From the sequence record HM114315.1: a DNA stretch of 64,000 nt; one strand, given 5' to 3'. Source of the DNA: Acinetobacter phage 133. A program made the position numbers and the translations under genes. Within the stretch, counting starts at the first letter, position 1; each line of letters begins with the position of its first letter. This document shows, in pieces, positions 3,241 to 22,183 of the stretch. The notes below the pieces were generated by a model. That model was not told where the DNA came from. It saw only the letters and a program-made list of their open reading frames with translations, and did not search any database.

Positions 3241-3463
3241 CTTATTGGAAGCAATTAAAAATAACGATCTTATCAAAGCACAACGAGCTTTCGCAGAAGG
3301 TATGAAAAGCCATGTTGCTGAGATTCTAGAGCGTGAAAAGACTCGTATTGGCGCAAATATTTTCATTGAAGGAGAAGAAAAAACGGATCCTGATGACGAT
3401 GAAGATGACGAAGACGATGATGAAGACGATGACAAACCTGGTAAAGGTAAGGACGAAGACTAA
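3233..3463 (+). CDS. 67: Prohead core protein gp67-like, with an acidic poly-D/E C-terminus
   Basis: Small ORF between gp20 and gp68 with an acidic tail (DDDEDDEDDDEDDD), as in T4 gp67. The start is ambiguous between 3221 and 3233. Confidence 0.65.
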   Translation: MNSLLEAIKNNDLIKAQRAFAEGMKSHVAEILEREKTRIGANIFIEGEEKTDPDDDEDDEDDDEDDDKPGKGKDED

Positions 3464-3886
3464 ATGCAAACATTCATCTTAGACGAACTATTAGAATCGC
3501 ATGAATATCATTCTAAATTAGCATTGGCTAAGACGCATTACAATTCACTTTCTGAATCGCTAACTGGTCCTGAAATAATGGCCGTTGCAATCAAAATGAT
3601 CCCAGACGATCCAGCTTTGGCTGTTGCATTGGGATCACTTGCTGAAAACACGCAACTTGATGAATTTATTGTTCGTCAAGTTTCTAGCAAGGGTGAAGTG
3701 AAACGGTTGAAAGACCGTGATACTCGCAAGCGTCTTGCCACACAAACTACAGGCTTATCAAAAGCTCGTCGCCGTGAAATTTCACGTAAAGCGGTACGCA
3801 CCAAAAAATCTCAACCATCAAAAGTGGCTCGAGCGGTGCGCACACGTAAAAAGGCGATGAAACGTCGTATTGCACTAGGATATTGA
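3464..3886 (+). CDS. 68: Prohead core protein gp68-like
   Basis: Position between 67 and 21, 140 aa, basic C-terminus. Consistent with T4 gp68. Confidence 0.65.
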   Translation: MQTFILDELLESHEYHSKLALAKTHYNSLSESLTGPEIMAVAIKMIPDDPALAVALGSLAENTQLDEFIVRQVSSKGEVKRLKDRDTRKRLATQTTGLSKARRREISRKAVRTKKSQPSKVARAVRTRKKAMKRRIALGY

Positions 3887-3887
3887 T

Positions 3888-4526
3888 ATGGAACTACTCA
3901 TTGAACAATGGGGACAGCCAGGCGGTACTGACATCAAAACATCTCATATTCTTGAGGAATCTACTGAAGGAAAACCTGGATTATATATTGAGGGCATTTT
4001 CCTTCAGGCTGATGTTGTCAACCGTAATAAACGTCTGTATCCAAAATCAGTTTTAGAACCTGCTGTAGCCAAGTACATAAAAGAACAAGTTAATTCACAT
4101 CAGGCCCTTGGAGAACTAAACCATCCTCCTCGAGCAAATGTGGATCCAAATTTAGCTGCTATCATTATTGAAGATATGTGGTGGGAAGGTTCTAATGTAA
4201 TGGGCCGCGCTAGGGTAATTGAAGGCGATAATGGGCCAGGTGATAAACTCGCGGCAAACATTAAAGCTGGATGGGTACCAGGCGTGTCAAGTCGTGGACT
4301 AGGATCTGTAACAAAATCTACCCGTGGTCACAATGTCGTTAACGAAGGTTTTAAGCTAACAGTTGGCGTAGATGTGGTATGGGGTCCTTCTGCACCTGAT
4401 GCCTGGGTTAAACCTCGTATTGTAGAAGCTACAGAAGAAAAACAGGAGCCGGCTATTATACCAAAGAATGATAATGCATTCAAAAAATTGGTAGAAAACT
4501 TGCGCATAAATAATATTGAAGATTAA
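3888..4526 (+). CDS. 21: Prohead core scaffold and maturation protease gp21
   Basis: Aligns with T4 gp21 (LYIEGIF.QA.VVNRNKRLYPK, QALGELNHPPRANVDP, GDKLAANI.AGW.PGVSSRGLGS). Confidence 0.9.
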   Translation: MELLIEQWGQPGGTDIKTSHILEESTEGKPGLYIEGIFLQADVVNRNKRLYPKSVLEPAVAKYIKEQVNSHQALGELNHPPRANVDPNLAAIIIEDMWWEGSNVMGRARVIEGDNGPGDKLAANIKAGWVPGVSSRGLGSVTKSTRGHNVVNEGFKLTVGVDVVWGPSAPDAWVKPRIVEATEEKQEPAIIPKNDNAFKKLVENLRINNIED

Positions 4527-5387: not shown

Positions 5388-6953
5388 ATGACTATTAAAA
5401 CCAAAGCACAACTTGTGAAAGACTGGTCTAAACTTCTTGAAGCTGAAGGCGCACCGGAAATCATCGAAGGCAAAGAAGCCATTATGGCGAAGATCTTCGA
5501 AAACCAAGAAAAAGACACAAAATCAGATCCAATCTATCGTGACAAAGATATGATTGAATCGTTTGGCAGTTTCTTGGCAGAAGCGGAAATCGCTGGTGAT
5601 CATGGTTATAACCCAACGAATATTGCATCGGGTCAAGCATCTGGCGCGATCACGAACATCGGTCCATCAGTAATGGGTATGGTACGTCGTACAGTTCCTA
5701 ACATGATGGCATTGGACGTATGTGGTACTCAGCCTTTGTCACAATCAAGCGGTCAATACTTTGCTCTTCGCGCAGTGTATAACAAAAACCCTCTTGCGGC
5801 TGGTGCTAAAGAAGCATTCCACCCAATGTATGCCCCTGACGCTATGTATTCAGGCCAAGGCGCTGCTCAAGCATTCACAGTAGTTGCTGCTGGTGCTACT
5901 CTTGCAATCGGTGATATCCATCGTCATGAGTTTGTTGAAACTGGTACTGCGTTTATCCAAGCGACTGCTGCGATCACTATTGATGCTGCTGCGACAACTC
6001 CAGAATTGTTGGATGCTGAAATTCTTAAGCGTATGGAAGCGGGTGAAGTTGTTGAAATCGCTGAAGGTATGGCAACGTCGGTAGCCGAATTGCAAGAAAA
6101 CTATAATGGTTCAAGCAATAACCCATGGAATGAAATGTCGTTCCGTATTGACAAACAAACTGTTGAAGCCAAAGCTCGTCAATTGAAAGCATCATACTCA
6201 ATTGAAGTTGCACAAGACCTTCGCGCAGTGCACGGTATGGACGCTGACTCAGAACTTGCTGGTATCCTTGCAACTGAAATCACTCTTGAAGTAAACCGTG
6301 AAATCGTTGACTGGATCAACTATTCTGCACAAGTTGGTAAAACTGGATTCACTCGTACTGAAGGTACAAAAGCAGGTATCTTTGACTTTGCAGACCCAAT
6401 CGATGTGAAAGGTGCTCGTTGGCAAGGTGAAGCTTTCAAAGCTTTCTTATTCCAAATCGATAAAGAAGCCGTTGAAGTTGGTCGTCAGACTGGCCGTGGT
6501 GCTGCAAACTTCATCATCGCATCGCGTAACGTTGTCAATGCTCTTGCTTCTGTAGACACTGGTGTAACTCCTGCTGCAGCTGGTATGGGTCGTAACTTCA
6601 ACGTAGACACTGCGAAATCAGTATTTGCTGGTGTGTTGGGCGGCCGCTATAAAGTGTATATCGATCTGTATTCTCGTCAAGACTACTTCACTGTAGGTTA
6701 CAAGGGTACAACTGAACTGGACGCTGGTATCTACTACTTGCCGTATGTTGCATTGACTCCAATGCGTGCTCAAGATCCTGAGTCTTTCCACCCGATCTTA
6801 GGCTTCAAGACTCGCTATGCAGTTGGTATCAACCCAATGGCGTACAGTCAAGAGCAAGCTCCTGGTGGCCGTATCACTAACGGTATGCCAACGATCGCGA
6901 ACTCTGCTGGTAAAAACTCGTACTTCCGCCGTGTTTGGGTAAAAGGTCTATAA
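5388..6953 (+). CDS. 23: Major capsid protein gp23
   Basis: Near full-length identity blocks with T4 gp23 (MTIKTKA.L, GPSVMGMVRR, FALRAVY.K.P.AAGAKEAFHPMY, FIIASRNVVN, YFRRVWVKG). 521 aa, as in T4. Confidence 0.95.
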   Translation: MTIKTKAQLVKDWSKLLEAEGAPEIIEGKEAIMAKIFENQEKDTKSDPIYRDKDMIESFGSFLAEAEIAGDHGYNPTNIASGQASGAITNIGPSVMGMVRRTVPNMMALDVCGTQPLSQSSGQYFALRAVYNKNPLAAGAKEAFHPMYAPDAMYSGQGAAQAFTVVAAGATLAIGDIHRHEFVETGTAFIQATAAITIDAAATTPELLDAEILKRMEAGEVVEIAEGMATSVAELQENYNGSSNNPWNEMSFRIDKQTVEAKARQLKASYSIEVAQDLRAVHGMDADSELAGILATEITLEVNREIVDWINYSAQVGKTGFTRTEGTKAGIFDFADPIDVKGARWQGEAFKAFLFQIDKEAVEVGRQTGRGAANFIIASRNVVNALASVDTGVTPAAAGMGRNFNVDTAKSVFAGVLGGRYKVYIDLYSRQDYFTVGYKGTTELDAGIYYLPYVALTPMRAQDPESFHPILGFKTRYAVGINPMAYSQEQAPGGRITNGMPTIANSAGKNSYFRRVWVKGL

Positions 6954-6967
6954 GATCTAAAAAAATA

Positions 6968-6996
6968 AAGGGACTCAATTGAGTCCCTTTTTTATT
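6968..6996. terminator. Bidirectional intrinsic terminator between gene 23 (+) and the endonuclease gene (-)
   Basis: Hairpin AGGGACTC-AATT-GAGTCCCT followed by TTTTTATTT, with an A-run on the other side. Confidence 0.7.
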
Positions 6997-8509
6997 TGAC
7001 GTATGTTAGGTTGCCACAGTCCCATATGCGCCGAAGCCCGTTATCGTAACAGTTTTGGACTTCCGTTTTGTTGGGATCATACCTTGATAATAAATGGGGT
7101 AACTTATGTTTCATATACGATGACCGGTGTTTTAAAGTTAAATTATCCACATAAAAATAACAAGGTGGTGTAGTACCAACTTGAGTCAGGTTACATTTAG
7201 AATAAACCCCGCCCATTGACCATCGTCTATTTGCATATGAAACAAATGAATGACCTTTGAATAATTTTGATGCTCCCCCAACTACAGTGTGATTTAATAA
7301 AGAACAAAGCCGAAGCAATTCTTTATTTGTAGAACGTGAATACCGGCTTTTGCCATATATTGCAACTTGGACTAATAAATTGTTATGAAATAGTCCATAG
7401 TATTCGCTGCCGTATATTCCGCCCTGTAAATGATTAATATTACAAAACTCATATGCTTCGCTTGCTGATATACGAGATAGAGTACACTTCCGTGCGTATA
7501 TTTTAGCTGAACGTTGTACTTTATTTCGGATAACCGACTTCCAGATATTTTGTTTGTCAATATTGACCCATTCATTCTCAAATATATGTAACAATTGGAT
7601 TCCTTTGGATTCACACTCAATAGTTTTATTCAGATGATAGTTTTTAATGTTATCATCGCTTACACAGCCGGATGAATGCCAATATAGACCATTGTACTCA
7701 ATCGCCAAATTATACATTGGAATATAAATATCCAATTCCAATGGAGGTATTACATTTCTAGTATTACATTCATATTCCACACCTAGAGAATCTAAGAATT
7801 TACATAAATCTTTCTCTGGTTGTGATTTGAATTTATCACGCAAATTATATTCAATTGACTTGGCCATAATGTATGACTTTGTTGCATTGGATTGTTTTAC
7901 AATATCCTCCAGCGAAAGAGTTTCCCATTTAACTTGAAATTCATCTTTATTGAATACCCAAGATTTAATGTGGCGCCTTGATGTTTGCATTTCCTTTTGG
8001 AGTAATCCTAATTTTTCCTTCATAGGAGCATATTTAGAAATATTACTAACTCCATACCGGTCAATACATGTTGCCTTTGTTTGAGTTACATTTCTATCAA
8101 ATGCTTTGATTTTCTCTAATCCGGACTCAGAATACCCCGATGGACCATGGTTTATTTTGCGGGTATTCCAACATTTTGCATGATAATCATTGCGACCAGA
8201 CAAAGCATTTTTAATATTACGATTTTTTGATTCAATGTCAGTATTATTGACTTTAGTCTTTTGCAGATCTGGGTCATTTGCCATACATTTTGTATTGCAA
8301 TAAATTTTAGGTATATCGACTTCAGTGCCACAAGTTGGACACTCATTAAGCCGAGCCCAACCTTTTATCATTAGTAGCAACACGGTTTTATCGCTATACT
8401 CTGGGTTGTATCCAGATCGATCAAACTTTTCAGGATGTCTGGAAAGCTTTTGTGCCCAATTCGGACTCAGCTTTCCAGATTTACTTTTAAAATAATCAAT
8501 ATCAGTCAT
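6992..8509 (-). CDS. Homing-endonuclease-like protein: Vsr/DUF559-like PD-(D/E)XK nuclease core with an N-terminal zinc-finger and NUMOD-like repeats
   Basis: Occupies the 23/24 intergenic slot, where T4 has segD. Core motif ELDIYIP...LAIEYNGLYWHS...GIQLLHIFENEW matches the DUF559/Vsr-like pattern. N-terminus has CPTCG...C and repeated G.S.SG.EKIK-type modules. Strong RBS AGGAGA. Confidence 0.55.
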   Translation of the reverse strand: MTDIDYFKSKSGKLSPNWAQKLSRHPEKFDRSGYNPEYSDKTVLLLMIKGWARLNECPTCGTEVDIPKIYCNTKCMANDPDLQKTKVNNTDIESKNRNIKNALSGRNDYHAKCWNTRKINHGPSGYSESGLEKIKAFDRNVTQTKATCIDRYGVSNISKYAPMKEKLGLLQKEMQTSRRHIKSWVFNKDEFQVKWETLSLEDIVKQSNATKSYIMAKSIEYNLRDKFKSQPEKDLCKFLDSLGVEYECNTRNVIPPLELDIYIPMYNLAIEYNGLYWHSSGCVSDDNIKNYHLNKTIECESKGIQLLHIFENEWVNIDKQNIWKSVIRNKVQRSAKIYARKCTLSRISASEAYEFCNINHLQGGIYGSEYYGLFHNNLLVQVAIYGKSRYSRSTNKELLRLCSLLNHTVVGGASKLFKGHSFVSYANRRWSMGGVYSKCNLTQVGTTPPCYFYVDNLTLKHRSSYMKHKLPHLLSRYDPNKTEVQNCYDNGLRRIWDCGNLTYVK

Positions 8510-8571: not shown

Positions 8572-9840
8572 ATGAGCATTCATAATTTAATTCGTGAATC
8601 AATGGGCAGTGTGGACGTAGAAAAAGGTCGTCCTTCATTGCTGGCATTGACTCGCGCAACAACAAAATTAATCTATACTGACCTAGTTGCGATTCAACCA
8701 ACCGACAGCAACGTAGCCGCTTTATTCGGGGTTAAATATTTAAACCCGAACGATGAATTGTCATTCATTACAGGTGCAACATATTCTGGTGCTATTGGTA
8801 CAGAAGCACGTAAAACCCTGCCTGATATGACCGTCGGTATGACCCTGGCGAAAGGCGATTATTTCAAATACCAAGACGTTGTATTAAAGGCCCTTGTTGA
8901 TAATCCATTTGCAGGGACAACTGAAACTGACTTATTTGATATCTTGTCAGAAGCTATTGCTGGATCCGCTGTGCGCATGGTCCCTGATGCTGCTGAAACC
9001 TCACACTTTGAAGTTGACAAACCTGATATTGCTGAAGCAGGGTTCACAATTGACAAGTGGACCGCCCCCGCCAAAACTCGTAAGTTACAAACTCAAATTA
9101 CTGTTGAATTGGCACAGGATTTAAATTCGAATGGGTTTGAACCTTCTGATATGTTAGAAGATATTCTGGCTACTCAAATGGCCGAAGAAATTAATAAAGA
9201 TGTAATGCAATCTATGATCACAGTGTCAAAACGTTTCAAGGTTAAAGGTATATCAGATAAGGGCGTATTAGATTTATCTGTAGTAGGTAGTTCAGTTGAA
9301 CAAGCTCGTGATTTATTCCGATATATCTGCGAAATGAATGCAGATATCCAACGCAATACTTCCTACTCGGCTACATTTGTGCAAGCGTCTTCTCGTGTCG
9401 CTGCCTTGCTTACATCGTCAGGTTGGATGCAGAAAAAAGATGATCAGCCAGAATCTGCGTATGGTGTATTGAATAATGGCCTTGTATTATACTGTGACAA
9501 CAACAGCCCAGTTGAATATGTGATTGTTGGCGTTAAAGATGAGTTTGGCGATGCAGAAACAATCGGCTCACTATTCTATGCTCCTTATGTGGATGGTCTT
9601 AGTGAAGAAGCTGATATTGTTGACCACATTGGCGCATACAAGGTTCTTCGGGACCCAGCATCATTACAACCAAAAATCATGCTTCAAGTCCGATATGCAC
9701 TATGTGTAAACCCTTACACTATGGGTCTTGATGACCCAACAGCTCGTAATATTGATGCATCAAACATGGACAACTTTGCAGGTCAATCGCAAATGTCAGT
9801 GTTGCTCGGGGTTAAGTTGCCAAAACTAGTGACAGTTTAA
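8572..9840 (+). CDS. 24: Head vertex protein gp24
   Basis: gp23 paralogue; shares LAIQPT/ALDVCGTQP-type motifs, 422 aa, RBS AGGAG. Confidence 0.9.
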   Translation: MSIHNLIRESMGSVDVEKGRPSLLALTRATTKLIYTDLVAIQPTDSNVAALFGVKYLNPNDELSFITGATYSGAIGTEARKTLPDMTVGMTLAKGDYFKYQDVVLKALVDNPFAGTTETDLFDILSEAIAGSAVRMVPDAAETSHFEVDKPDIAEAGFTIDKWTAPAKTRKLQTQITVELAQDLNSNGFEPSDMLEDILATQMAEEINKDVMQSMITVSKRFKVKGISDKGVLDLSVVGSSVEQARDLFRYICEMNADIQRNTSYSATFVQASSRVAALLTSSGWMQKKDDQPESAYGVLNNGLVLYCDNNSPVEYVIVGVKDEFGDAETIGSLFYAPYVDGLSEEADIVDHIGAYKVLRDPASLQPKIMLQVRYALCVNPYTMGLDDPTARNIDASNMDNFAGQSQMSVLLGVKLPKLVTV

Positions 9841-9950: not shown

Positions 9951-10586
9951 TTAGTTTAATATGTGGAAACGTGAATTACGTGATTCACGGATTTGTACGG
10001 TTTTTTGTCGTTTGATGTAATATAACAAACTGTATAATACTCGACGATCGACTTCGCGAGCGATATGAATTTTGGATTTCCAGTCTTTATTCTGCTCAAT
10101 AAAATCCCAAATCCAATATGGGATATTTGTGTAACCTGGTGCAGGGCCCATTAGACTTAGCGTTGGATAGAAACCTGGAGGTAGTTCTTCTGATTCGATC
10201 ACAGGTTGATCCTGAATCGCTTCTGTTGGAGTTTCTTCAACAGGGACTGGTGTTTCTATAGGCTGTGTAACTTCGTCTGATACAGGATCAATGGTGGCTT
10301 CCGGAGTTTCTTCAACAACAGGTTCGACTTTAGGTTCTGCTGCCTGAACTACGATACGCCCATCTTCCTGTGCTAACAATTCGGACATTGTTAGGCCTTC
10401 TGTTTCTTCAGGCATTGGCTCATTATGTAGGGCTTTAATTTCAGCAGTGAATTTTTCAATCATCGCCTCAATAGTCAGGTTCTTTTTAAGCTCAATTCCG
10501 AACCCTTGTGCATATTCTACAAAGGCCTCTTTGGCTTCACGTTTTGGTAACTCAAGTAAAGAGTCGATATATTCTTTATCAATCAT
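9951..10586 (-). CDS. Hypothetical late protein with an acidic Pro/Glu-rich linker, in the hoc/inh position
   Basis: 211 aa ORF with RBS AGGAGA, and a minus-strand TATAAATA 20 nt upstream. No confident homology from inspection. Confidence 0.5.
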   Translation of the reverse strand: MIDKEYIDSLLELPKREAKEAFVEYAQGFGIELKKNLTIEAMIEKFTAEIKALHNEPMPEETEGLTMSELLAQEDGRIVVQAAEPKVEPVVEETPEATIDPVSDEVTQPIETPVPVEETPTEAIQDQPVIESEELPPGFYPTLSLMGPAPGYTNIPYWIWDFIEQNKDWKSKIHIAREVDRRVLYSLLYYIKRQKTVQIRESRNSRFHILN

Positions 10587-10604
10587 GTTAGTCTCCTTTT
10601 AACA

Positions 10605-10616
10605 TATTTATAAATA
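10605..10616. promoter_or_regulatory. Palindromic divergent late promoter pair TATTTATAAATA (plus strand for uvsW, minus strand for the 9951..10586 gene)
   Basis: Contains TATAAATA on both strands. Confidence 0.6.
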
Positions 10617-10655
10617 AGATATAAGCTAAGCCGTAACCCAATATTAGGAGTTCAT

Positions 10656-12152
10656 ATGGACATTAAATTACACTTTTTAGATTATAGCCACGCCCAAATT
10701 GAATGTGATGATGATGTTTACATGATGCTTCGTGATCACCTTTCTTTCTTTGCAGAAGGTTATCAATTCAACCCAAAATTTAAATATGGTCAATGGGATG
10801 GAAAAATCCGTTTACTTGAATATGATCGCAAAGTCCCAATTGGACTAGTTCCACACGTTGCTAAATTTGCGTCCAATATGGATTACTCAATTTGGATCGA
10901 CTCAAATCTAAAATCAAAATCAAATTTATCTCGCGAACTATTTGATAAATGGTTGGGCAAACTTGAAATATATAGCGGCAATACTCGCATCCAACCACAC
11001 TGGTATCAAGCTGATGCAGTATACAAAGCAATCATTGAAAAACGTGCAATCCTGAATTTACCGACATCCGCAGGTAAATCATTAATCCAAGCATTGTTAA
11101 CTCGTTACTACTTACAAACAAAAGAAGGTAAAGTATTAATTCTGGTTCCTAACACTAGTTTGGTGACTCAAATGAAATCGGACCTTGTGGATTATCGTTT
11201 ATTCCATAATGATGACATTGCAGAACTTCGGGGTGGTAAAAAACCTGGTGATGAAGCGGTAGTTATTGCAACTTGGCAATCGGCTATTAAACAACCGATC
11301 GAGTGGTTTGAACAATTCGGAATGTTATTATGTGATGAGATGCACTTGGCCATTGGTAAATCTATTTCCACCATTATTAAAGCGTTAGTTCATTGCGAAT
11401 ATAAAGCTGGTCTTACTGGATCACTGCGTGATGGCAAAGCAAACCTTATGCAATACCAAAGTTTATTTGGCGAAGTATTCAAACCTGTGACCACTACTCA
11501 ATTAATGGAAGAAGGCCAAGTGACCAATCTGGATATTAATTGTATTATCTTAGAGTACTCAGACGCAGTTAAGCAGATTGCCAAAGGGGTGGATTATCAA
11601 AATGAAATTAAGCTGATTACTAGCTATAAGCCGCGCAATACTTTTATTTGTAATGTTGCATTGACTTTAGCCAAAAAAGGGGAAAATGCGTTCTTGATGT
11701 TTAAACACGTTGAACATGGGAAAGCCCTTTACGCGGAATTAAAAGCGAAATATGATAAGGTTTACTATGTATCAGGTGAGGTTGATGCTGACACGCGCGA
11801 TGCTTTAAAACGAATGGCTGAGACTGAGACTGGTGTTATTATTGTGGCCTCTTATGGAGTGTTCTCTACTGGTATTTCGGTCAAGAATTTACATCATGTT
11901 TTATTAGCCCATCCAGTTAAGTCTGCAGTTATTATCAAGCAAACTATTGGACGTGTGTTACGTAAACATGATTCAAAATCGGTAGCTAAGGTATGGGATT
12001 TCATTGATGATTTTTCAACTGTCAAAGTGTCCAAGTCAACCGGCAAATCAAGTCGTTCTAATGCCAACTATGCATTGAAGCATGGATTAGAACGAATCAA
12101 GATTTACATCACTGAAAAGTTCAACTACACAACTAAGAAATTCAAGCTATAG
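10656..12152 (+). CDS. uvsW: UvsW RNA-DNA/DNA helicase (SF2)
   Basis: Aligns with T4 UvsW (MDIK.HF.D.SH, NLPTSAGKSLIQALL, Walker B DEMH, QTIGRVLRKH, VASYGVFSTGISVKNLHHV). Confidence 0.9.
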   Translation: MDIKLHFLDYSHAQIECDDDVYMMLRDHLSFFAEGYQFNPKFKYGQWDGKIRLLEYDRKVPIGLVPHVAKFASNMDYSIWIDSNLKSKSNLSRELFDKWLGKLEIYSGNTRIQPHWYQADAVYKAIIEKRAILNLPTSAGKSLIQALLTRYYLQTKEGKVLILVPNTSLVTQMKSDLVDYRLFHNDDIAELRGGKKPGDEAVVIATWQSAIKQPIEWFEQFGMLLCDEMHLAIGKSISTIIKALVHCEYKAGLTGSLRDGKANLMQYQSLFGEVFKPVTTTQLMEEGQVTNLDINCIILEYSDAVKQIAKGVDYQNEIKLITSYKPRNTFICNVALTLAKKGENAFLMFKHVEHGKALYAELKAKYDKVYYVSGEVDADTRDALKRMAETETGVIIVASYGVFSTGISVKNLHHVLLAHPVKSAVIIKQTIGRVLRKHDSKSVAKVWDFIDDFSTVKVSKSTGKSSRSNANYALKHGLERIKIYITEKFNYTTKKFKL

Positions 12153-12180
12153 AAAAAGGGACCTAGGTCCCTTTTGTTTT
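12153..12180. terminator. Bidirectional terminator after uvsW
   Basis: Perfect palindrome GGGACCTAGGTCCC followed by TTTTGTTTT. The identical element recurs at 54969. Confidence 0.7.
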
Positions 12181-12562
12181 ATCCGAGCGGATGATATCCA
12201 TCGACATCATCATTTTCAGCGAATCGTATTTCTATACGAACATGTAAGTTTTTACGCAGTTTGAATAATCTGGTTACGTTATGACGATTTACAATTGCAG
12301 GTTTTGGACTATTTGAGAAGTCCACAAAATACAGCCCATAATAAGAGATTAAAAAATATTCAATGCTTTTTGACGGCTCAGTCCGCTTAAATGGGATGTT
12401 ATGCATGTATACTCCATCAATCGATACATCAAGAGATCCATCTTCTCGAACGTAGATTGTCACACGTTCAAGTCTGGACTCCTTTGCATTTGGTCGTGTA
12501 TAAAAATACAGAAACATTGATGCAACAACCACTATTACAATTAATGCAAGCCATCCCATCAT
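12179..12562 (-). CDS. Hypothetical membrane protein (N-terminal transmembrane helix)
   Basis: ORF with a hydrophobic N-terminus (WLALIVIVVVASMFLYF), translationally coupled by ATGA overlap. Confidence 0.45.
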   Translation of the reverse strand: MMGWLALIVIVVVASMFLYFYTRPNAKESRLERVTIYVREDGSLDVSIDGVYMHNIPFKRTEPSKSIEYFLISYYGLYFVDFSNSPKPAIVNRHNVTRLFKLRKNLHVRIEIRFAENDDVDGYHPLG

Positions 12563-12831
12563 TCGTCCCTCATTTGGTCATCACATTCTTCGCACATTTT
12601 CATATCAACGAGCTCGTTATAAACACGGATTCCAATTTCACGCCAATGATCACACTGTTCACAACAGAAAACGCGAGTTTCCAAGTGGTCCAGGAATACC
12701 GGAGAATATTGCAGTTCAGGATCTAACACCTGGGCCTTTAATTCAGTGGCCAATGCCTTCGAATAAGTTTCTTCAGAACCCTCTAGTGCTTCGGCAATTA
12801 AATCATATTGATTTTCATTTGGGTATTGCAT
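12559..12831 (-). CDS. Hypothetical Cys-rich small protein
   Basis: ORF in an operon-like array; CCEQC...CEEC suggests metal binding. Confidence 0.4.
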   Translation of the reverse strand: MQYPNENQYDLIAEALEGSEETYSKALATELKAQVLDPELQYSPVFLDHLETRVFCCEQCDHWREIGIRVYNELVDMKMCEECDDQMRDE

Positions 12832-13112
12832 TATACTTTACTCACTATAGAAACATTGCTCCATCCGATGCATATACTTTGTACACCGTTACTATCACCA
12901 CAAATTGAAATGGAGTATCCCTTTTCTTTAAGATCTTTGATAACCAGAGAATACACTGAGCGGTTAGTTAATTGAGGCAACAATTCAACCGAAGCCCAGA
13001 ATTCACCTTTTAATGCGGCGTCATTTATTGCTTGACTACATTGCGCAATTAGACGGTCCTTGCTAGTTTTGGATGCAATGGTGTGCATTTCAACACTATT
13101 TGGAATTGACAT
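12831..13112 (-). CDS. Hypothetical protein
   Basis: ORF coupled to its neighbours with 1 nt overlaps. Confidence 0.4.
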   Translation of the reverse strand: MSIPNSVEMHTIASKTSKDRLIAQCSQAINDAALKGEFWASVELLPQLTNRSVYSLVIKDLKEKGYSISICGDSNGVQSICIGWSNVSIVSKV

Positions 13113-13372
13113 TAAATATCTCCACCCTGTAACACACTACTTAATGATGGATGGCAATGATCGAGAATCATTTTGCGCACAGTCTCTCGATCTTTATATG
13201 GGAAGAAACGTACCAAGTGATCTTCAAGGCTTAACTTGCTTAATCGAATAAAAACTGGTAATAATCCATCGCCGTAGATAAATGACACTGAGCCAACTTC
13301 ATTATCGATTATGATGCTAATTCGCATACCTTCTGAGCTTTTTACGTTTAAACGTGATTTTAAAAGACGCAT
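13112..13372 (-). CDS. Hypothetical protein
   Basis: ORF coupled to its neighbours. Confidence 0.35.
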   Translation of the reverse strand: MRLLKSRLNVKSSEGMRISIIIDNEVGSVSFIYGDGLLPVFIRLSKLSLEDHLVRFFPYKDRETVRKMILDHCHPSLSSVLQGGDI

Positions 13373-13815
13373 TATTTGATCCCCATATTTGAATTGTACA
13401 CTTTGTATGCGGCGTCAAGCCACTGTTCTGGTGTAACTCGTTGCCCTACTTTTGTGGTAAAAAGCGTAATAACTTCACGCTGGGTAGGATTCATTTTAAC
13501 ATCAGTTTCAATACAGAATGGATTATCCAGGGAGCGTTTAAATGTGTGATTTTGATGCAATTCTGCGCCAAACACTTCATTTAATATTTTTTGAATATGA
13601 TTACCCCAATTATTACCCTGATTAATAACTTTGCCAATTACGCAACTTGACCAAAGGTGCATGTTAAACACCACATCACTATCACGAAGTAGCTCAACTT
13701 TATCAATGATCATTTTCAGACCCTTTAAAAGGTCTGTCCGAGAACCGTACATTGTTGCGTAAGTAGTATTAAAGGAATAATTACCTTGAAATTGACTGAC
13801 CATTTTATTTCTCAC
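13372..13815 (-). CDS. Hypothetical protein
   Basis: 147 aa ORF downstream of the uvsY operon terminator. Confidence 0.45.
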   Translation of the reverse strand: MRNKMVSQFQGNYSFNTTYATMYGSRTDLLKGLKMIIDKVELLRDSDVVFNMHLWSSCVIGKVINQGNNWGNHIQKILNEVFGAELHQNHTFKRSLDNPFCIETDVKMNPTQREVITLFTTKVGQRVTPEQWLDAAYKVYNSNMGIK

Positions 13816-13869
13816 GTTGGTTGGAATAAGAGAATATTAAACCGATAGAAATAAAAAGTAAACCCTAAA

Positions 13870-14622: not shown

Positions 14623-15012
14623 TTACCCTTGATTTAATCTAAATTTAATTTGTTCCAATGTATCTGGGTTGTCCAGAATAGAGAAACGAACTTCGACTAT
14701 CACGGTATTTCTATCATACTCCGGAGTTACTGATACGCGAAGCTGAACCACACGTGGTTCATATGTTCGAATTGATGACATTATAACACGTTCCATTGTA
14801 TCTGCTACAAGAGGAGTCATGTTTTCAAATAATTGATCGGACAAATTACAACCAAATTCTGGATCAAATGGTCTAGAACCTTTGCGGGTTGTAACAATAC
14901 CTAAAATTGAATTTTTTACTGCACGCGCCCCGACAGATTTTGCCAAATCACGATCCCAATTCATTTCCATTCCAGGATTTAAATCCGTATACATTTGGTC
15001 TATATTACTCAT
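14623..15012 (-). CDS. 25: Baseplate wedge protein gp25
   Basis: Aligns with T4 gp25 (GIVTTRKGSRPFDPEFGC.LSDQLFENMTPL.ADT.ER). Start at the internal ATG with GAGG RBS, overlapping the gp26 stop as ATGA. Confidence 0.9.
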   Translation of the reverse strand: MSNIDQMYTDLNPGMEMNWDRDLAKSVGARAVKNSILGIVTTRKGSRPFDPEFGCNLSDQLFENMTPLVADTMERVIMSSIRTYEPRVVQLRVSVTPEYDRNTVIVEVRFSILDNPDTLEQIKFRLNQG

Positions 15013-15641
15013 AATAGAACCTCGATGCATTCCTCAAGTCCCTTTATATGTTTTACCCCTGACTTTCCACAATCACAACTCACTGGTATAGCTAATTGAA
15101 TATATGGGGCCAAAAGGTATTCCTTGATGTTTAATACGTCCTGTACTGAAAATGCTGCTACAAAGTTATCCATTTCCAATTCGGATAAGTCATCTAGTTG
15201 CAAAACATCATTCGATGTGTAAATTCCATCAATGCATGACAAAATAAGATCATACATGTTGTCATCACAGAACATATTGGTTGGATATTTTAATTTTACT
15301 TTGAACCCCTTTAACTGATACATCTCAGAATGCACCGTATCGCTCTGTGGGATCACTTGGTGCAAATGTGTATAGTTTAGTTCAATAGTGCGTTTTGCTC
15401 CACATTCGCACACGTATTGCGTTTTAGGGCGCATCGTTGTGCTTTTCGCTAATAGTGTTACAAAGAGCTGTTCTTTTGAGACTTTGGTTAAGTTTAAACC
15501 TGCAGTAGAGCCTAAAATATCCAGGACGCCCTCTTTAAAAGTCGCGTTCTCTACTGAGGCCAGAAAGTTCATGTATTGACCAAGAGTAATTGCTTTTAAA
15601 TTAAATGTTTCTTGACCAATTTTTATTTCAATTGTATGCAT
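15009..15641 (-). CDS. 26: Baseplate hub subunit gp26
   Basis: Position, length (210 aa versus 208 in T4) and Cys motifs. Minus-strand late promoter upstream. Confidence 0.7.
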   Translation of the reverse strand: MHTIEIKIGQETFNLKAITLGQYMNFLASVENATFKEGVLDILGSTAGLNLTKVSKEQLFVTLLAKSTTMRPKTQYVCECGAKRTIELNYTHLHQVIPQSDTVHSEMYQLKGFKVKLKYPTNMFCDDNMYDLILSCIDGIYTSNDVLQLDDLSELEMDNFVAAFSVQDVLNIKEYLLAPYIQLAIPVSCDCGKSGVKHIKGLEECIEVLL

Positions 15642-15688: not shown

Positions 15689-16438
15689 ATGGCAAAAACT
15701 ATTAGATGTATATTACCAGATGGGGTTCATAGATTTGAGCCCTTTACTGTGGCAGATTATAGAGATTTTATCTATATTCGTTTAGAACTTGAAGAACATG
15801 ACCTTGAAGAACAGGCTAAGATTTTGGACGAAGTTACTCAGGATTATTTTGATCTACCTGAATCGTATCGTCATTATGCCTTTCTTAGAAAATTCTTGGC
15901 TAGCATCGGTAAAACTAAATTTCCGATTCTTGTTACGTGTCCAATTTGCGGGGAAGAACATCAAACCGTATTTACAATTGAACAAGATGATTTAGAAGAA
16001 CCTATTATTCAAGTAAGTAATGTCAAGCTTAAATTTAAGTTTCCGGATAAGGATTACGATGATCTGACTAGCTTGGTCTTGGATAACATTAAAGAAGTTG
16101 AAAACGACGGGCAGACATATAATTGGGATACTCTTCCAAAGGAACAGCAAGACGTAATTATTTCGCTTATTGACATGAAAATATTTGAACAGATTGTCCG
16201 TCGACTAAAGCCCATTTATTTTACTTTACGAAGCAAACACTGTGGAAAGATTCATGAAGTGGTGTTCAACAATTTATTATCAATTTTTAAACTGTTAATC
16301 AGCCCAGACGAAATTTTTACATATTATCAAATTAATCATTTATTAGCTAAACATGGATACGATTTAACTGCTGTTATGAACATGATTCCAGCAGAACGTG
16401 GCTATGCGCTATCACTTGTGGATAAGGACCTATCATGA
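15689..16438 (+). CDS. 51: Baseplate hub assembly protein gp51
   Basis: 249 aa, the same length as T4 gp51, with a CPICG Cys motif. Sits between gp26 and gp27. Confidence 0.65.
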   Translation: MAKTIRCILPDGVHRFEPFTVADYRDFIYIRLELEEHDLEEQAKILDEVTQDYFDLPESYRHYAFLRKFLASIGKTKFPILVTCPICGEEHQTVFTIEQDDLEEPIIQVSNVKLKFKFPDKDYDDLTSLVLDNIKEVENDGQTYNWDTLPKEQQDVIISLIDMKIFEQIVRRLKPIYFTLRSKHCGKIHEVVFNNLLSIFKLLISPDEIFTYYQINHLLAKHGYDLTAVMNMIPAERGYALSLVDKDLS

Positions 16439-18006
16439 AAGATGTACAACGTCCCGGATACCCTAACGTCAGTATTAAACTCTATGAAGATTATACGGCA
16501 TGGGGCGAGAACCGTTTTATTGAACTGGCTGCGACCTTTACAACATTAACTCTTCGGGATGGTTTGTATGGTCGCAATGAAGGAATTCTGCAATTCTTTG
16601 ATGCCTATAATTTACATACTCGTATGAATGGTGAACAAATCATTCAAATTTCACTGGCAAATTCAAACAGTGATAACGTACTGACTCGGATTTATGGTAG
16701 CAAAAATACCTCTGTCTCTGTAGACTCTAAAGGTGATAACATTTTGGCCATTAATTTGGAACCTATACACCATGTAGTTAATCAGAAATTTGCTCGTACT
16801 TTCTTCCAGAATGCAACAGAATCAATTCAAGAAATGATTCGAGTAATTTATCTGAACAAAGACCAAATTGCACCAAATGTTGACGGATTAAATGCATTTG
16901 TCCCGCGTGTCCCGTGGGTTTCAAATCTAAAAGATTATATGCAATACGTGCGCGATGTTGGCATGTCGGTTGAACAAGAACAATTTGTATTCACCTGGGA
17001 AGACTTTGCTGGAATTCATGTTGAAGATTATCAGTTTATTATTGATCAGCCTGCAATTGGGTGTGTGGTTGGTGATGAAAACATGATTGGCGAATATGTG
17101 GATCAACTTGACTCCCCGTTAGTGTTCAAATTTCAGTGGTTATCAAAAACCAATCAATTTGTTCGAAACCCATTAGAAAATACCACCTTCTTTTCTCACT
17201 CATTTAACGATAAAGCGCTAGACCGTATTACAACCGGTACGGGAGAAAACAGTGTGTACATCAGTAGATCAGGCGGTTACTCTGAAATGACTTATCGTAA
17301 TGGGTATGAAGAAGCACTACGACTTTGCACTATGGCCCAATACGATGGATATGCAACTTGTCAGTCATATGGCAACTTTGAATTTATGCCTGGTATGAAA
17401 ATGAATTTCAGTGATCCTAAACGGCAATTCAAAACAGATTTCTACATTGACGAAGTTGTGCATGAAATTTCAAATAACTCATCTCGTACACATATCTACA
17501 TGTTCACTAATGGCAAAGAACTAAAACCGGTCGAATTAGTTAAAGTTAAATCACAAAGTCTGGCTGAACAACCAATAATTAATGAGGAACCTCTTGTGGA
17601 AGATGGAAAAGAACTAATCGCTGGATCGTGGGACCTAAATCGATTATGCACAACTGCTTTAGCGAATGCAGCGGGTCGTAAGTCAACAGGTGATTGTGCA
17701 AAATACGTACGACTTGCGTTAGAATCGGCGCAAAAGAAAAAGATGTTTAGTGGTGGGCTTGGCCACGCCAATCAAATGTCTTCTCGACTAGTGAAGATGG
17801 GATGGGTTTCAGTAGGGTCCAATATTACATCATGGCAAAAGGGTGATATTTGCGTATTCAGTCGTACTAATACAGAAGCGGGTCAGAAATACGGGCATGT
17901 TGCAATATGGACTGGTGTTAAGTGGGTTTCCGACTTCATCCAAAATCAAATCCAACCAACACGCGGTTCTAATCTCCCTTATACAATTTACCGAGTAAAA
18001 CAATGA
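16435..18006 (+). CDS. 27: Baseplate hub protein gp27 fused to a C-terminal CHAP/NlpC-P60-like cysteine peptidase domain
   Basis: First ~390 aa align with T4 gp27 (QRPGYPN.S.KL, RFIELAAT.TTLT.RD.LYGRNEG.LQF, SRSG.YSEMTYRNGYEEA.RL.TMAQYDGYA). Extra ~130 aa carry CHAP hallmarks: GDCAKYV, then KGDICVF...GHVAIW. Confidence 0.85.
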   Translation: MKDVQRPGYPNVSIKLYEDYTAWGENRFIELAATFTTLTLRDGLYGRNEGILQFFDAYNLHTRMNGEQIIQISLANSNSDNVLTRIYGSKNTSVSVDSKGDNILAINLEPIHHVVNQKFARTFFQNATESIQEMIRVIYLNKDQIAPNVDGLNAFVPRVPWVSNLKDYMQYVRDVGMSVEQEQFVFTWEDFAGIHVEDYQFIIDQPAIGCVVGDENMIGEYVDQLDSPLVFKFQWLSKTNQFVRNPLENTTFFSHSFNDKALDRITTGTGENSVYISRSGGYSEMTYRNGYEEALRLCTMAQYDGYATCQSYGNFEFMPGMKMNFSDPKRQFKTDFYIDEVVHEISNNSSRTHIYMFTNGKELKPVELVKVKSQSLAEQPIINEEPLVEDGKELIAGSWDLNRLCTTALANAAGRKSTGDCAKYVRLALESAQKKKMFSGGLGHANQMSSRLVKMGWVSVGSNITSWQKGDICVFSRTNTEAGQKYGHVAIWTGVKWVSDFIQNQIQPTRGSNLPYTIYRVKQ

Positions 18007-18554
18007 ATATTATAATCCCAACTAAGGTTGTTAAGTATGAATACCATGGTCCAAAAACAGTGGAAATCCCAAAGTTTGGTCTCCTACAATATCGTATGGT
18101 TGGAGACATGACTGATGGTGAAAAGGCCTTAACATTATTGATTGAATCAATTAAAAAGAATGCGTCAAAGGCCGAGCGCGATTTGATCAGTCTTCATATT
18201 TTAGAGTTCAACGATAAAATGTCAGGCGCCGTAGTCAAAGATGGATTTGAATACAATTTAGATAACGTCTATATTAGCCAGAAACTTAAATTTGAAATGG
18301 GTGAATACCTTTTTAAATTCCGTAGTCCAAATGCAGATGAATGTGTAATGCCAATTGACTTATTGTTAAAGTCCTGCTGCACATTGGTGAAGTTCAAAGG
18401 TGAAAAAATTGACACTCCTGATTTTATGGAAATGCCGGCCTTTGTTTTAGAATGGGCGGATAAAATACTAAACACTATTTCTATTGATGGACCAGAGGGT
18501 CCAATTGAAGGATTAGGTAATATAATGGAGTTATTCGATGTCAAGCTTGCGTGA
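18003..18554 (+). CDS. 28: Baseplate hub distal subunit gp28
   Basis: Position after gp27, 183 aa versus 177 in T4, ATGA coupling. Confidence 0.65.
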   Translation: MNIIIPTKVVKYEYHGPKTVEIPKFGLLQYRMVGDMTDGEKALTLLIESIKKNASKAERDLISLHILEFNDKMSGAVVKDGFEYNLDNVYISQKLKFEMGEYLFKFRSPNADECVMPIDLLLKSCCTLVKFKGEKIDTPDFMEMPAFVLEWADKILNTISIDGPEGPIEGLGNIMELFDVKLA

Positions 18555-20286
18555 TGATATTCGGGACAAAAATTTGTCCAACCTTGCGTCGTTCCGCGAC
18601 CGCAATGCAGATAGTAAGAAATCAGACCCTGAAACTAAACCAAAACCACCTTTAAATCTCAATGATCCTGATATTAAGGGTCTACCTGGTATAGAAGATG
18701 TTCGCAAACCAAAACGTAAGCGTCGTACTAAGGAGGAAATTAAAGCCTGGCGTGCATCGTTGAAACCTGAGCCTATACAGGACGGAGAACTGCAGCAGGA
18801 AGCGGTTGAAGCCAATACGCACCTGGAACAGATCGAAAAAAGTACAACTGATTCCAATGCTACTTTGTCAAAGTTATCAAGTCAATTGGAATCTAAATTT
18901 AGTGGACAAGTACAGTCTCCGCAAGTGGTTGAACATAAAACAACCGAAGAAATTATTAAAGATTTCGCGGAGAAATCAAAATCTAAAACCGAATCGACTG
19001 AGCCTGCGATATTACCGGCTGTTCTTCCTGAGGCAACAAAGAAACCCAACCTAGGTGGCGCAACTACACCGAAAGAACAAAAGGCTAAATCTGACTCGAC
19101 CAAAGCCAGTCACCCGGCAATGAAAGTCTTTAACGTAGTTAAGTCTGGATTTAAATCAGTTAAAAGTGTGGGGGATAAGATTGCTGGATTTTTATTCAAG
19201 GGCGCATTAACTGCTGCGATCGAAGCTGCTAAGATGGCCGGGATTATTTTCCTTATTATTGCTGCCATTGACTTAGTACGGATTCATTTTAAGTATTGGA
19301 CTGAAAAATTTAGTGCTAAGTTTGATGCTGTAAAAGAAATTATAATGGGTTACTTTGACAGGTTTGGCAATTGGATGGAATCAATTATGCCTATGTTCTC
19401 TGGGCTATTTGATGCTATTGATTATATCAGAAATGTTTTTGCTAAAGGTGATTGGTCTGCATTAGCTGGTGCGATCGGCAACGTTATGAAAGAAGCGTTT
19501 AACTCTTTAGGAGCAATGATTCAGAACGGTATTGCCAAACTCGCATCTATATTATTACGTAAATTTGGTTTTAATGACACTGCAGACTCAATCGAAGCGA
19601 TTGGATTAGAGAATAAGCAGAACATGACTAATACTCCATTGACACCAGAAGAACAGAAGAAAGTGGCCAAGCAACAACAAAAGATGTTGGATAAAGATTA
19701 TACTCCAACACAAACAGGGATTACTGCATTTTTACCAGACAAATTCCGCAAGGCCATTGGTGCATTAAGTGATGGTGAATATGATCAGATACAAGCTGAG
19801 AAAAAGAATATGAGCCAACTTAAAGGATTAAATAAAGAGGATCAAACAAATACCATTGGCGCTATGAATGAAGCTCGTGCTGCCTTGAACCGTTATGAAA
19901 ATAAAGTAGAACGTTTGGATCCAAACGATCCAAATCAAGCAGCTAAGATCGACAATGCTTACAAAGAGGCTAAGACCGCAATTTCAGACCCTGATCTTAA
20001 GAATGTGCCTGATGTTAAGATAGAGCTTGAAAATCAACTTGGTAAGCTTCAAGCAAAAACAGGTCGAGCTGCCCCAAAACCAGCACCGGCTGCGAATAGT
20101 CCAGAAGCGGCGCAAGCCAATTCGATTGCTCGTAAAACTAATGAAGTCAAGGCCCCTGTTGCACAAGCAGCGAATAACACCAATGTTAATACTACAATGG
20201 TTAAGAACAACAAAAGTGTTCACGTACAGGCCCCTGTTACGAGCACTAATGCACCGGGTGTATTCCATGGTACAGGAGTTAATTAA
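18538..20286 (+). CDS. 29: Baseplate hub/tail tube length determinator gp29
   Basis: 582 aa versus 590 in T4. Position and low-complexity Lys/Ala-rich composition are typical of a tape-measure protein. Confidence 0.7.
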   Translation: MSSLRDDIRDKNLSNLASFRDRNADSKKSDPETKPKPPLNLNDPDIKGLPGIEDVRKPKRKRRTKEEIKAWRASLKPEPIQDGELQQEAVEANTHLEQIEKSTTDSNATLSKLSSQLESKFSGQVQSPQVVEHKTTEEIIKDFAEKSKSKTESTEPAILPAVLPEATKKPNLGGATTPKEQKAKSDSTKASHPAMKVFNVVKSGFKSVKSVGDKIAGFLFKGALTAAIEAAKMAGIIFLIIAAIDLVRIHFKYWTEKFSAKFDAVKEIIMGYFDRFGNWMESIMPMFSGLFDAIDYIRNVFAKGDWSALAGAIGNVMKEAFNSLGAMIQNGIAKLASILLRKFGFNDTADSIEAIGLENKQNMTNTPLTPEEQKKVAKQQQKMLDKDYTPTQTGITAFLPDKFRKAIGALSDGEYDQIQAEKKNMSQLKGLNKEDQTNTIGAMNEARAALNRYENKVERLDPNDPNQAAKIDNAYKEAKTAISDPDLKNVPDVKIELENQLGKLQAKTGRAAPKPAPAANSPEAAQANSIARKTNEVKAPVAQAANNTNVNTTMVKNNKSVHVQAPVTSTNAPGVFHGTGVN

Positions 20287-21356
20287 TGAAATACGAAGAA
20301 ATTGTAGATAGTATTAAAAAAGCCGGCACGGAAATTTCTGCCGGTTATACTAAGCAGGATACTACTCAACAAACTTTTAGTGCTCAATATCCAGCAGAAC
20401 GTTCTGCTGGTAACGACGCTACAAAAACGTCCAATGGCGATCTTTATCGCAATGGATTGCTTTTTACTGCTTATGATTACAAAGCACGGGCGACCCCAGA
20501 CATGACTCGTCAACGTCAAGGTGAATTAGATAAAGCCAGATCGTTATACACTCGCATTTCATCCGGTTTGGCTGATGCAGGTAAACGTTCTTCTACACAA
20601 GGCCAAGACAAGAAAATTGTCAAAGACCCGGTCGCAAATATTCTTTTGCCACGTTCCAAGTCGGATTCTGATGTGGTTTCTCATAAGTTCAATGATGTAC
20701 AGGATTCATTGATAACACGTGGCGGTGGTACGGCAACTGGCATTTTGTCCAATATTGCGTCAACTGCAGTCTTCGGCACCATTGAATCGGTAACCCAAGG
20801 ATGGATGGCCGATAAGGGAGAGCAGATCTTCAATGCGTCCCGCTCAATGTATAATGGCGCTGAAAATCGTTCTAAAGTGTATACATGGGAACTTACTCCT
20901 CGTACATTGGAAGACCTAGTTGAAATTATGAAGATCTACGAGATTTTCAATTACTATTCTTATGGTATGACGGGTACAAGTGCTTATGCAAAAGAATTAA
21001 AGGCTTATATTGATGATTGGTATAAAAAGACGTTCCTCAATAATTTAACTCCGGAAGGCTCGGATAAATCTGGCACCGCAATGGAATCTGTAACATCATT
21101 TTTAAGTAATGTAATTACGGTTTCCAATCCAACAATCTGGTTTGTGCGTAACTTTGGCAAATCTACAAAGTTTGATGGTCGACCTGATGTATTTGGACCC
21201 GCTCAGATTCAAAGTATCCGTTTTGATAAGGCGCCAGAAGGACATTTTAAAGGATTGGCTATTGCTCCCAACATGCCTTCGACATTTGTATTGGAAATCA
21301 CAATGCGTGAAGTTATTGCGTTGAGCCGAGGCTCAATTTATGGAGAGGAGCTATGA
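20286..21356 (+). CDS. 48: Baseplate tail tube cap gp48
   Basis: Position and size (356 aa versus 364 in T4), start coupled as TAATG. Confidence 0.7.
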   Translation: MKYEEIVDSIKKAGTEISAGYTKQDTTQQTFSAQYPAERSAGNDATKTSNGDLYRNGLLFTAYDYKARATPDMTRQRQGELDKARSLYTRISSGLADAGKRSSTQGQDKKIVKDPVANILLPRSKSDSDVVSHKFNDVQDSLITRGGGTATGILSNIASTAVFGTIESVTQGWMADKGEQIFNASRSMYNGAENRSKVYTWELTPRTLEDLVEIMKIYEIFNYYSYGMTGTSAYAKELKAYIDDWYKKTFLNNLTPEGSDKSGTAMESVTSFLSNVITVSNPTIWFVRNFGKSTKFDGRPDVFGPAQIQSIRFDKAPEGHFKGLAIAPNMPSTFVLEITMREVIALSRGSIYGEEL

Positions 21357-22183
21357 ACAAAGGAATTGAATCTTTTGCAAGCCAGGTACGTACAGATTTT
21401 CAGCGTACTAACCTTTTCAGTGTTATGTTTGCAACCACTCCATTGAGTCGAGCCGATGAACTAATGCGTAAGTATAATGCTACTGAACCTGATGCAGTAT
21501 TGACTGGGGATTTTGGATGGACACGTGATAACTCACACCCATCCTTGCCGCGCATGCAAACAGACTCTAGTGTCCAAACTTCACTTAAATATATCATCGG
21601 CGCAATGACTGAACGTGTTATGCAAACTCTGGTCGGCCGATATACTGTCGGCAAGCACCTACTAGAGTTCTTTGGTATGAATAAGACCCAAGAATCTGGG
21701 TTAAGTGTATTCGCGGTTAAATTGCCTGAAAACCGCTTAGCTCATGAGATGGATTTGACACATAACGCCCCAAACATTAAGGTGACGGGCCGTGAGTTTG
21801 ATACACTAGTCGTATCATTCCGTATGGCCCATGACGGGCTTAATTTCATTGCGATGCATGATTGGGTTAATGCGGTGGAAGATCCCGTTACGGGCCTTAA
21901 AGCGCTCCCTATTGATGTGGAGTCCGATATCCAAGTTAACTTACATGGACGTGATGGATTACCTCATACAGTCGCAATGATTGGAGGATGCATTCCGGTA
22001 TCAGTATCTGCCCCAGAATTGTCTTATGAGTCTGACAATACTTTCTCTACATTTGATGTTACGTTCGCTTATCGGACCATGCAAATGTCAAAAGTAAGTC
22101 GAGCTGAAGCCATGAATTGGATTAGTGGTGGAATCAACCCAAATGAGCAGCCTATTAATTTAGGTAGTGCCCCAAGAATATAG
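21353..22183 (+). CDS. 54: Baseplate tail tube initiator gp54
   Basis: Position. N-terminus resembles gp19 (RTNLFSV), consistent with the tube-like fold of gp54. Confidence 0.7.
   Translation: MNKGIESFASQVRTDFQRTNLFSVMFATTPLSRADELMRKYNATEPDAVLTGDFGWTRDNSHPSLPRMQTDSSVQTSLKYIIGAMTERVMQTLVGRYTVGKHLLEFFGMNKTQESGLSVFAVKLPENRLAHEMDLTHNAPNIKVTGREFDTLVVSFRMAHDGLNFIAMHDWVNAVEDPVTGLKALPIDVESDIQVNLHGRDGLPHTVAMIGGCIPVSVSAPELSYESDNTFSTFDVTFAYRTMQMSKVSRAEAMNWISGGINPNEQPINLGSAPRI

Follow-up and report, generated by a model that had tools for sequence, protein, structure and literature searches.

Gene 27 of Acinetobacter phage 133 was analysed within a stretch of 64 000 nucleotides of the phage genome (sequence record HM114315.1), referred to below as the window. 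The product of the gene is a T4-type baseplate hub protein, gp27, prolonged by a C-terminal domain that belongs by homology to the family of Tae3, an amidase effector of type VI secretion. We consider it probable that gene 27 encodes a T4-type hub gp27 tethered by a flexible linker of about 20 residues to a Tae3-family amidase that aids penetration of the cell wall. The gene, its parts and the predicted catalytic residues are listed here; A3 is an alignment of 39 sequences (the window protein and 38 others) and A4 is an alignment of 27 more diverse sequences, free-standing proteins included.

16435..18006, + strand: gene 27, baseplate central hub protein with predicted C-terminal amidase, 523 amino acids plus stop (open reading frame and translation; Pfam and PHROG baseplate hub matches)
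16435..17559, + strand: gp27 core, residues 1–375, channel-forming hub domains (Pfam, AlphaFold model, Foldseek)
17560..17622, + strand: flexible linker, residues 376–396 (predicted local distance difference test score, pLDDT, <50; low identity among fused homologues)
17623..18003, + strand: predicted Tae3-family (CHAP superfamily) cysteine amidase domain, residues 397–523 (Pfam, phmmer and profile searches against the PDB, structure model)
17695..17697, + strand: codon TGT of Cys421, predicted nucleophile (aligned to Tae3 Cys23; invariant in A3 and A4; codon read directly)
17896..17898, + strand: codon of His488, predicted general base (aligned to Tae3 His81; invariant in A3 and A4)
17932..17934, + strand: codon of Asp500 in the motif W-V-S-D-F-x-Q, candidate third catalytic residue (invariant in A3 and A4)

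The open reading frame is intact and starts with ATG. A first-pass annotation, made from the sequence without database searches, had described a gp27 with a C-terminal peptidase domain at these positions, and the reading frame, the Pfam matches and the structure model all agree with that description. It had also named a sequencing frameshift, with the domain as a separate reading frame, as an alternative. Such an artefact, in which a frameshift or misassembly joined gp27 to a separate downstream lysin gene, was considered and is given practically no weight. A frameshift or chimera is excluded because three independent Logan assemblies yield the identical 523-amino acid product, which ENA contains as well; in addition, the codons of the linker contain no stop and no change of frame, and an in-frame fusion is present in 71 deposited Acinetobacter phage records from many laboratories. 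The G + C content of the amidase domain (43.8%) is higher than that of the gp27 core (37.9%) and of the whole window (39.7%), a difference that might faintly reflect a foreign source.

The core is an ordinary T4-type gp27. The families Phage-tail_1 (PF09097; residues 5–199, 262.7 bits, gathering cut-off 27) and Phage-tail_2 (PF09096; residues 203–373, 224.8 bits, gathering cut-off 25) cover it almost end to end, and the PHROG ‘baseplate hub’ family matches the gene product at 612 bits. The AlphaFold model of the full protein, built on 65 homologues, has a mean pLDDT of 87, with high confidence in the core, and the core adopts the four-domain gp27 fold. In Foldseek comparisons, residues 1–375 superpose on the T4 gp27 chains 9MKB, 1K28 and 2Z6B with a target-normalized template modelling (TM) score of 0.94–0.97, a root-mean-square deviation (rmsd) of 1.2–2.1 Å and 55% identity. 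The T4 protein has 391 residues and the chains in these structures contain 361–375 modelled residues; a C-terminal tail is therefore unresolved there too, and the extension of the phage 133 protein begins where the modelled T4 chains end. The ordinary gp27 portion, placed by the first-pass annotation at the first 390 or so residues, corresponds to residues 1–375.

The linker that follows (residues 376–396) is predicted to be disordered, with pLDDT <50 throughout. It contains a Shine–Dalgarno-like GAGGA followed, after seven nucleotides, by an in-frame GTG at codon 388 (17569–17599). In principle this internal start signal could yield a free amidase domain; it is probably due to chance, because it was not found in gene 27 of phage Ac42.

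The C-terminal domain of about 127 residues falls, by sequence and fold, into the Tae3 family of cysteine amidases within the CHAP superfamily. The three motifs on which the peptidase had first been proposed, in an extension put at about 130 residues, are present: GDCAKYV at residue 419, KGDICVF at residue 469 and GHVAIW at residue 487. Pfam finds CHAP (PF05257) at residues 417–495, scoring 27.9 bits in the whole protein (E 3.4e-6; cut-off 26) and 31.2 bits if the domain is scanned alone; the orthologue from Ac42 reaches 20.2 bits, under the cut-off. Of the two families originally offered, CHAP is retained, whereas NlpC/P60 (PF00877) is not: no NlpC/P60 family is listed in the Pfam scan at E ≤ 1, and the NlpC/P60 structures of CwlO match the profile of the domain family only at E 0.039. 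No NCBIfam model matches the whole protein or the domain, and the best non-hub PHROG matches to the domain are endolysin families.

The CHAP assignment would be weak if Pfam stood alone; the matches to the PDB make it firm. A search of the PDB with the single sequence (phmmer) returned one match only, Tae3 (4HZ9/4HZB; E 3.9e-5), and a profile built from 27 homologues of the domain matched 4HZ9 at E 1.3e-29, covering residues 7–118 of 119. Confidence is also high for the domain in the model of the full protein; modelled alone, it is compact, with three helices followed by a beta-sheet (pLDDT 91.5). Tae3 is the top Foldseek match of this model (probability 1.0; TM 0.69 by query and 0.77 by target normalization; rmsd 3.0–3.2 Å), and CHAP endolysins, PcsB and Tae4 come next, far behind. 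In both HMMER alignments, Cys23 and His81 of Tae3 pair with Cys421 and His488. These two residues, which correspond to the Cys and His predicted from the motifs, are invariant in A3 and A4, as are Gly470, Asp471, Gly487, Trp497 and Asp500. In the model, Cys421 stands at the start of the helix 421–432 and is followed along the chain by His488 and then Asp500, the arrangement typical of CHAP domains. By analogy with the usual CHAP triad, Asp500, 12 residues past His488, is likely to be the third catalytic residue.

The structures 4HZ9 and 4HZB represent Tae3 of Ralstonia pickettii, a type VI secretion amidase effector crystallized with its immunity protein Tai3, and its catalytic dyad is Cys23/His81 (PMC11796386). 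Within this class of enzymes, the reported target of Tae2 and Tae3 is the D-Ala4-mDAP3 cross-bridge that links peptide stems (mDAP, meso-diaminopimelic acid), and that of Tae1 and Tae4 is D-iGlu-mDAP (D-iGlu, D-isoglutamate) inside one stem (Russell et al. 2012, cited in bioRxiv 10.1101/2020.02.18.954545). Cleavage of peptide cross-links, the specificity proposed in the first-pass annotation, is our best guess for the phage domain because this is the activity reported for Tae3; the bond cut would most likely be the mDAP-D-Ala (4-3) bridge. Homology between the phage domain and Tae3 extends along the entire catalytic domain, and both have the same Cys/His dyad and fold. The two differ in their setting: Tae3 is a free cargo of 119 residues, exported by type VI secretion and neutralized by periplasmic Tai3, whereas the phage domain is covalently attached to a hub. 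No secretion-system match was found among the window open reading frames scanned with Pfam and PHROGs, and no candidate immunity gene adjoins gene 27, whose downstream neighbour codes for gp28. The phage protein is a homologue of Tae3 but not a type VI effector, because it has neither a secretion system nor a Tai3 partner.

The fusion is widespread among the T4-like phages of Acinetobacter. A tblastn search of deposited phage genomes placed the domain within gene 27 of the 71 records mentioned above, with 53–62% identity; they include Acj61, Ac42, Acj9, ZZ1, Lazarus, KARL-1 and AbTZA1. The gp27 proteins of these phages (Twarogvirinae) have the same architecture, operon position and Tae3-like domain, with a whole-protein identity of 57–66% to that of phage 133. 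In the deposited records the fused gene is nearly always annotated merely as ‘baseplate hub’, and the GenBank record of Ac42 notes that its gene 27 is ‘fused to the conserved hypothetical Acinetobacter protein’. A nucleotide alignment with gene 27 of Ac42 is confined to the core (bases 6–1085), with 70% identity. No genome close to that of phage 133 was found by megablast against INPHARED or in IMG/VR, where the relatives are limited to Acj9, Ac42 and two unfused phages. Because of this restricted alignment and the lack of a close genome, the phage 133 protein appears to be a new and fairly distant member of the fused gp27 family.

A large protein collection contains 33 further clusters of 518–534 amino acids with the same architecture; the other T4-like gp27 proteins have 343–406 amino acids. 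In a neighbour-joining tree based on the core only, all 34 fused proteins sampled constitute one clade, and this points to a single acquisition of the Tae3-like domain. Within this clade, mean pairwise identity reaches 66.5% in the amidase domain and 64.2% in the core, compared with 32% in the linker. These values indicate that the domain is as constrained as the structural core, that the tether is free to vary and that the domain is under purifying selection.

The domain was also searched for outside gene 27. A word-indexed protein search with the domain alone gave three matches, and an exhaustive HMMER search gave 803; a scan of bacterial genomes with the single sequence found no relative. 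A free-standing homologue of 169 amino acids (34% identity) is encoded in A. baumannii sequence CP035931.1 (L013; 8821–9330), adjoining dusA; it lacks an obvious signal peptide and lies outside any type VI context, and the Ac42 record, in speaking of a ‘conserved hypothetical Acinetobacter protein’, probably refers to it. The sequence CP035931.1 is deposited as a 1-Mb ‘plasmid’ yet carries housekeeping genes. Several T4-like Campylobacter phages (CP220, CPt10, CP21 and others) also code for a homologue, with approximately 40% identity over 75% of the domain, outside gene 27; it is annotated as an endolysin, a membrane protein or a hypothetical protein.

In T4, the injection device degrades the wall solely by the lysozyme of gp5, and the question raised by the first-pass annotation was whether the hub-borne enzyme replaces such a lysozyme or adds to it. 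A tblastn search of the 64-kb window with the gp5 of Ac42 gave only noise. The window begins close to gene 20, and synteny with T4 puts the expected position of gene 5 some 30 kb further upstream; the Logan contigs extend no more than 1.9 kb upstream of gp27. In the fused relatives, the lysozyme of gene 5 is intact: the gp5 of Ac42 (580 amino acids) has Gp5_OB, Phage_lysozyme and beta-helix domains, those of Acj61 and ZZ1 likewise keep all three, and Glu11, Asp20 and Thr26 are invariant between the lysozyme domains of these three proteins and T4 lysozyme. The records matching the gp5 of Ac42 include 67 from Acinetobacter, and 1417 of all 1423 matching records cover at least 80% of it. Because Ac42, Acj61 and ZZ1 carry both the fusion and a full gp5 with the lysozyme catalytic residues, the amidase of the fusion-carrying lineage, as judged from these relatives, adds to the gp5 lysozyme and does not replace it.

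The mechanism that we propose combines these elements. The gp27 trimer would present three tethered amidase domains at the tail tube’s tip, and contraction of the sheath would bring them into the periplasm with the gp5 spike. There, the amidase domains would cut the peptide cross-links of peptidoglycan, most likely the mDAP-D-Ala (4-3) bridge, and the gp5 lysozyme would cut the glycan strands; together, the two enzymes would make an opening through which the tube could pass. As the protein lacks an export signal and would be made in the cytoplasm, no immunity protein should be needed in the producing cell. In T4, gp27 remains on the tube tip after the wall has been penetrated, as attributed to Hu et al. 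2015 in PMC13433997.

Several points weigh against this mechanism. The presence of the C-terminal domain in the virion, its uncleaved state and its activity are predictions from sequence, and three extra domains of 14 kDa would have to fit around the hub inside the baseplate. The C-terminus of gp27 should face the spike by analogy with VgrG proteins, in which the gp27-like module runs straight into the gp5-like module; no statement on its position was found in the searchable literature. The Pfam CHAP score is marginal, barely exceeding the cut-off, and at approximately 27–33% identity to Tae3 the bond specificity may differ. Finally, the gp5 of phage 133 itself lies outside the window and the evidence for its lysozyme comes from relatives.

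Two other functions were weighed for the domain. It might be a catalytically silent module that binds peptidoglycan or has a structural role, anchoring or orienting the hub on the wall or serving baseplate assembly. Inactive CHAP folds do occur in phage baseplates, for example the weld protein’s ‘clip’ domain in phage 812 (PMC13433997), and a related gp27 of 698 amino acids (P0057) has a Tae3-like module in which Ser substitutes for the catalytic Cys, and then a canonical CHAP domain, so that the module can persist without its nucleophile. We nevertheless regard a silent module as unlikely in phage 133, since Cys, His and Asp are invariant in its protein and the 38 other sequences of A3 and the domain is conserved as strongly as the core. 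Alternatively, the amidase, released by proteolysis or made from an internal start, might act late in infection or outside the virion and aid lysis or lysis-from-without. The GAGGA-N7-GTG signal at linker codon 388, the PHROG endolysin families among the matches and the endolysin annotation of the free-standing homologue in Campylobacter phages are in favour of such a role. However, the signal is missing from Ac42, the domain, which lacks a signal peptide and a membrane anchor, sits in the late hub operon, and it has stayed fused to gp27 across the whole clade; moreover, a T-type holin encoded in the window (58387–59064) is consistent with a conventional lysis system. This late role is, in our opinion, about as improbable as a silent module, and a tethered amidase acting during wall penetration is preferred to both.

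If this is correct, a whole T4-like lineage has added to its hub, directly, a second and chemically different activity, a predicted amidase of peptide cross-links, of the type that is fired between bacteria through type VI secretion. An active domain would make the hub part of a natural two-enzyme penetration device and would be a clear instance of modules being shared by phage hubs and type VI effectors. In that case, phages of Acinetobacter, which is a priority pathogen, would moreover supply peptidoglycan endopeptidases directed at Gram-negative bacteria. Nothing established is overturned, as a hub-borne CHAP domain is known from Staphylococcus myophages and the fusion is already in public genomes. 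It is uncharacterized as far as the searchable literature shows: no paper was found there on T4-like phages of Acinetobacter with gp27 fused to CHAP or Tae3, and none of the fused Acinetobacter gp27 proteins appears to have been studied experimentally. The Tae3 assignment and the survey of gp27 cargo are modest additions.

Gene 27 is located in a T4-type hub operon with the order gp51, gp27, gp28, gp29, gp48, gp54, also found in Ac42 (Pfam and PHROG matches; gp54 by position). It overlaps gp51 by four bases at its start (16435–16438) and gp28 by four bases at its stop (18003–18006), as in a tightly coupled operon. Downstream of the operon are genes for an Alt ADP-ribosyltransferase and then a DNA ligase. 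The neighbouring genes are as follows.

14623–15030, − strand: gp25, in the hub operon neighbourhood
15009–15641, − strand: gp26, in the hub operon neighbourhood
15689..16438, + strand: gp51, hub assembly catalyst, upstream neighbour (Pfam T4_baseplate; PHROG baseplate hub/hub assembly catalyst)
18003..18554, + strand: gp28, distal hub subunit, downstream neighbour (Pfam Phage_hub_GP28, 125 bits)
18538..20286, + strand: gp29, tape measure/hub subunit (Pfam T4_Tape_measure, 240 bits)
20286..21356, + strand: gp48, tail tube cap (Pfam T4_tail_cap, 443 bits)
21353–22183, + strand: presumed gp54 (position only, as in Ac42)

Elsewhere in the window, a homing endonuclease gene (6992–8509, − strand; 505 amino acids; PHROG 3339, HNH type) lies antisense between the major head protein gene 23 (5388–6953) and gene 24 (8572–9840).

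Hydrolase cargo on gp27-like hubs is not limited to the fused Acinetobacter clade. Evolved VgrG spikes and the Tal proteins of siphophages carry a C-terminal peptidoglycan hydrolase as covalent cargo on a gp27-like hub or spike scaffold. An example of an evolved VgrG is V. cholerae VgrG3, which is listed in PMC6099711. The VgrG proteins combine gp27-like and gp5-like modules in one chain, with the cargo after the spike, whereas in phage 133 the cargo is on gp27 itself and gp5 is presumably a separate protein, as in Ac42, Acj61 and ZZ1.

The closest characterized counterpart among phages is the hub of Staphylococcus phage 812 (and K), in which a CHAP ‘cleaver’ with a Cys-His-Glu triad lies C-terminal to gp27-like domains I–IV; the cleaver shows activity in zymograms and is hidden by the weld protein until contraction (PMC13433997). 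Like the phage 133 protein, it joins a gp27-like channel module and a C-terminal lytic domain in one polypeptide of a contractile tail. It differs in belonging to the Herelleviridae, in the Gram-positive host, in an extra clamp domain and in the CHAP subfamily (Cys-His-Glu), and the weld protein that covers its active site has no T4 counterpart. The phage 812 structures 9EUM and 9EUF are among the fold matches of the phage 133 protein; the match to the cleaver fold is weak (E 0.1).

Other gp27 proteins carry different cargo. The 784-amino acid P0123 (L014, Logan SRR19581634_24852, 6001–8355) has SLT-like and Tae3-like domains, and P0046 and P0076 have Tae3-like and VanY domains. Both the contig of P0123 and that of P0076 (744 amino acids; L015, ENA ERZ27239165 k141_232034) show an authentic gp51-gp27-gp28-gp29-gp48 context. 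On the latter, where the genes concerned lie at 1697–3927 and 6001–8235, the gp27 with Tae3-like and VanY domains has a neighbouring gp5 of the composition ‘Gp5_OB + SLT’. This gp5 (Gp5_OB and SLT, 506 amino acids) is followed by a separate gene for a Gp5_C beta-helix protein of 237 amino acids; the lysozyme is here exchanged for a lytic transglycosylase and the spike divided between two genes. P0120 (540 amino acids) carries a Peptidase_M15_3 domain instead. The closest relatives of the domain outside gp27 (50–60% identity) are found inside proteins of 1000–1700 amino acids, and in those scanned the second Pfam match is a VgrG3-like muramidase or a phage tail lysozyme domain. One of them, P0124 (1275 amino acids; L006, Logan ERR11637140_20831, 10001–13828), has a Tae3-like domain with 54% identity to that of phage 133 and a C-terminal VgrG3-like muramidase; its gene is just downstream of a T4_baseplate (gp26/gp51-like) gene on a phage-like contig, and it probably serves an unrelated group of phages as a lysin of the tail or hub.

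With SLT, VanY, M15 and, in P0057, CHAP cargo on gp27 proteins, and with the Tae3-like domain present in large non-gp27 proteins, the T4-type hub looks like a modular carrier of wall hydrolases. A broader interpretation can be offered tentatively, and we think it rather less likely than not to hold in full: T4-type gp27 would be a general, swappable carrier of hydrolase cargo shared with the pool of type VI effectors, the enzyme of gp5 would have been swapped in parallel in at least one lineage, and a Tae3-type cutter would have been fixed once in the Acinetobacter-type lineage, where it would be needed to breach the host peptidoglycan and would so contribute to host range. The type VI side offers a parallel for the enzymes themselves, as the A. 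baumannii effector Tae17 consists of a lytic transglycosylase and a Tae3-like amidase, the same pairing as in P0123; in the arrangement of scaffold and cargo, such a gp27 would resemble an ‘evolved VgrG’.

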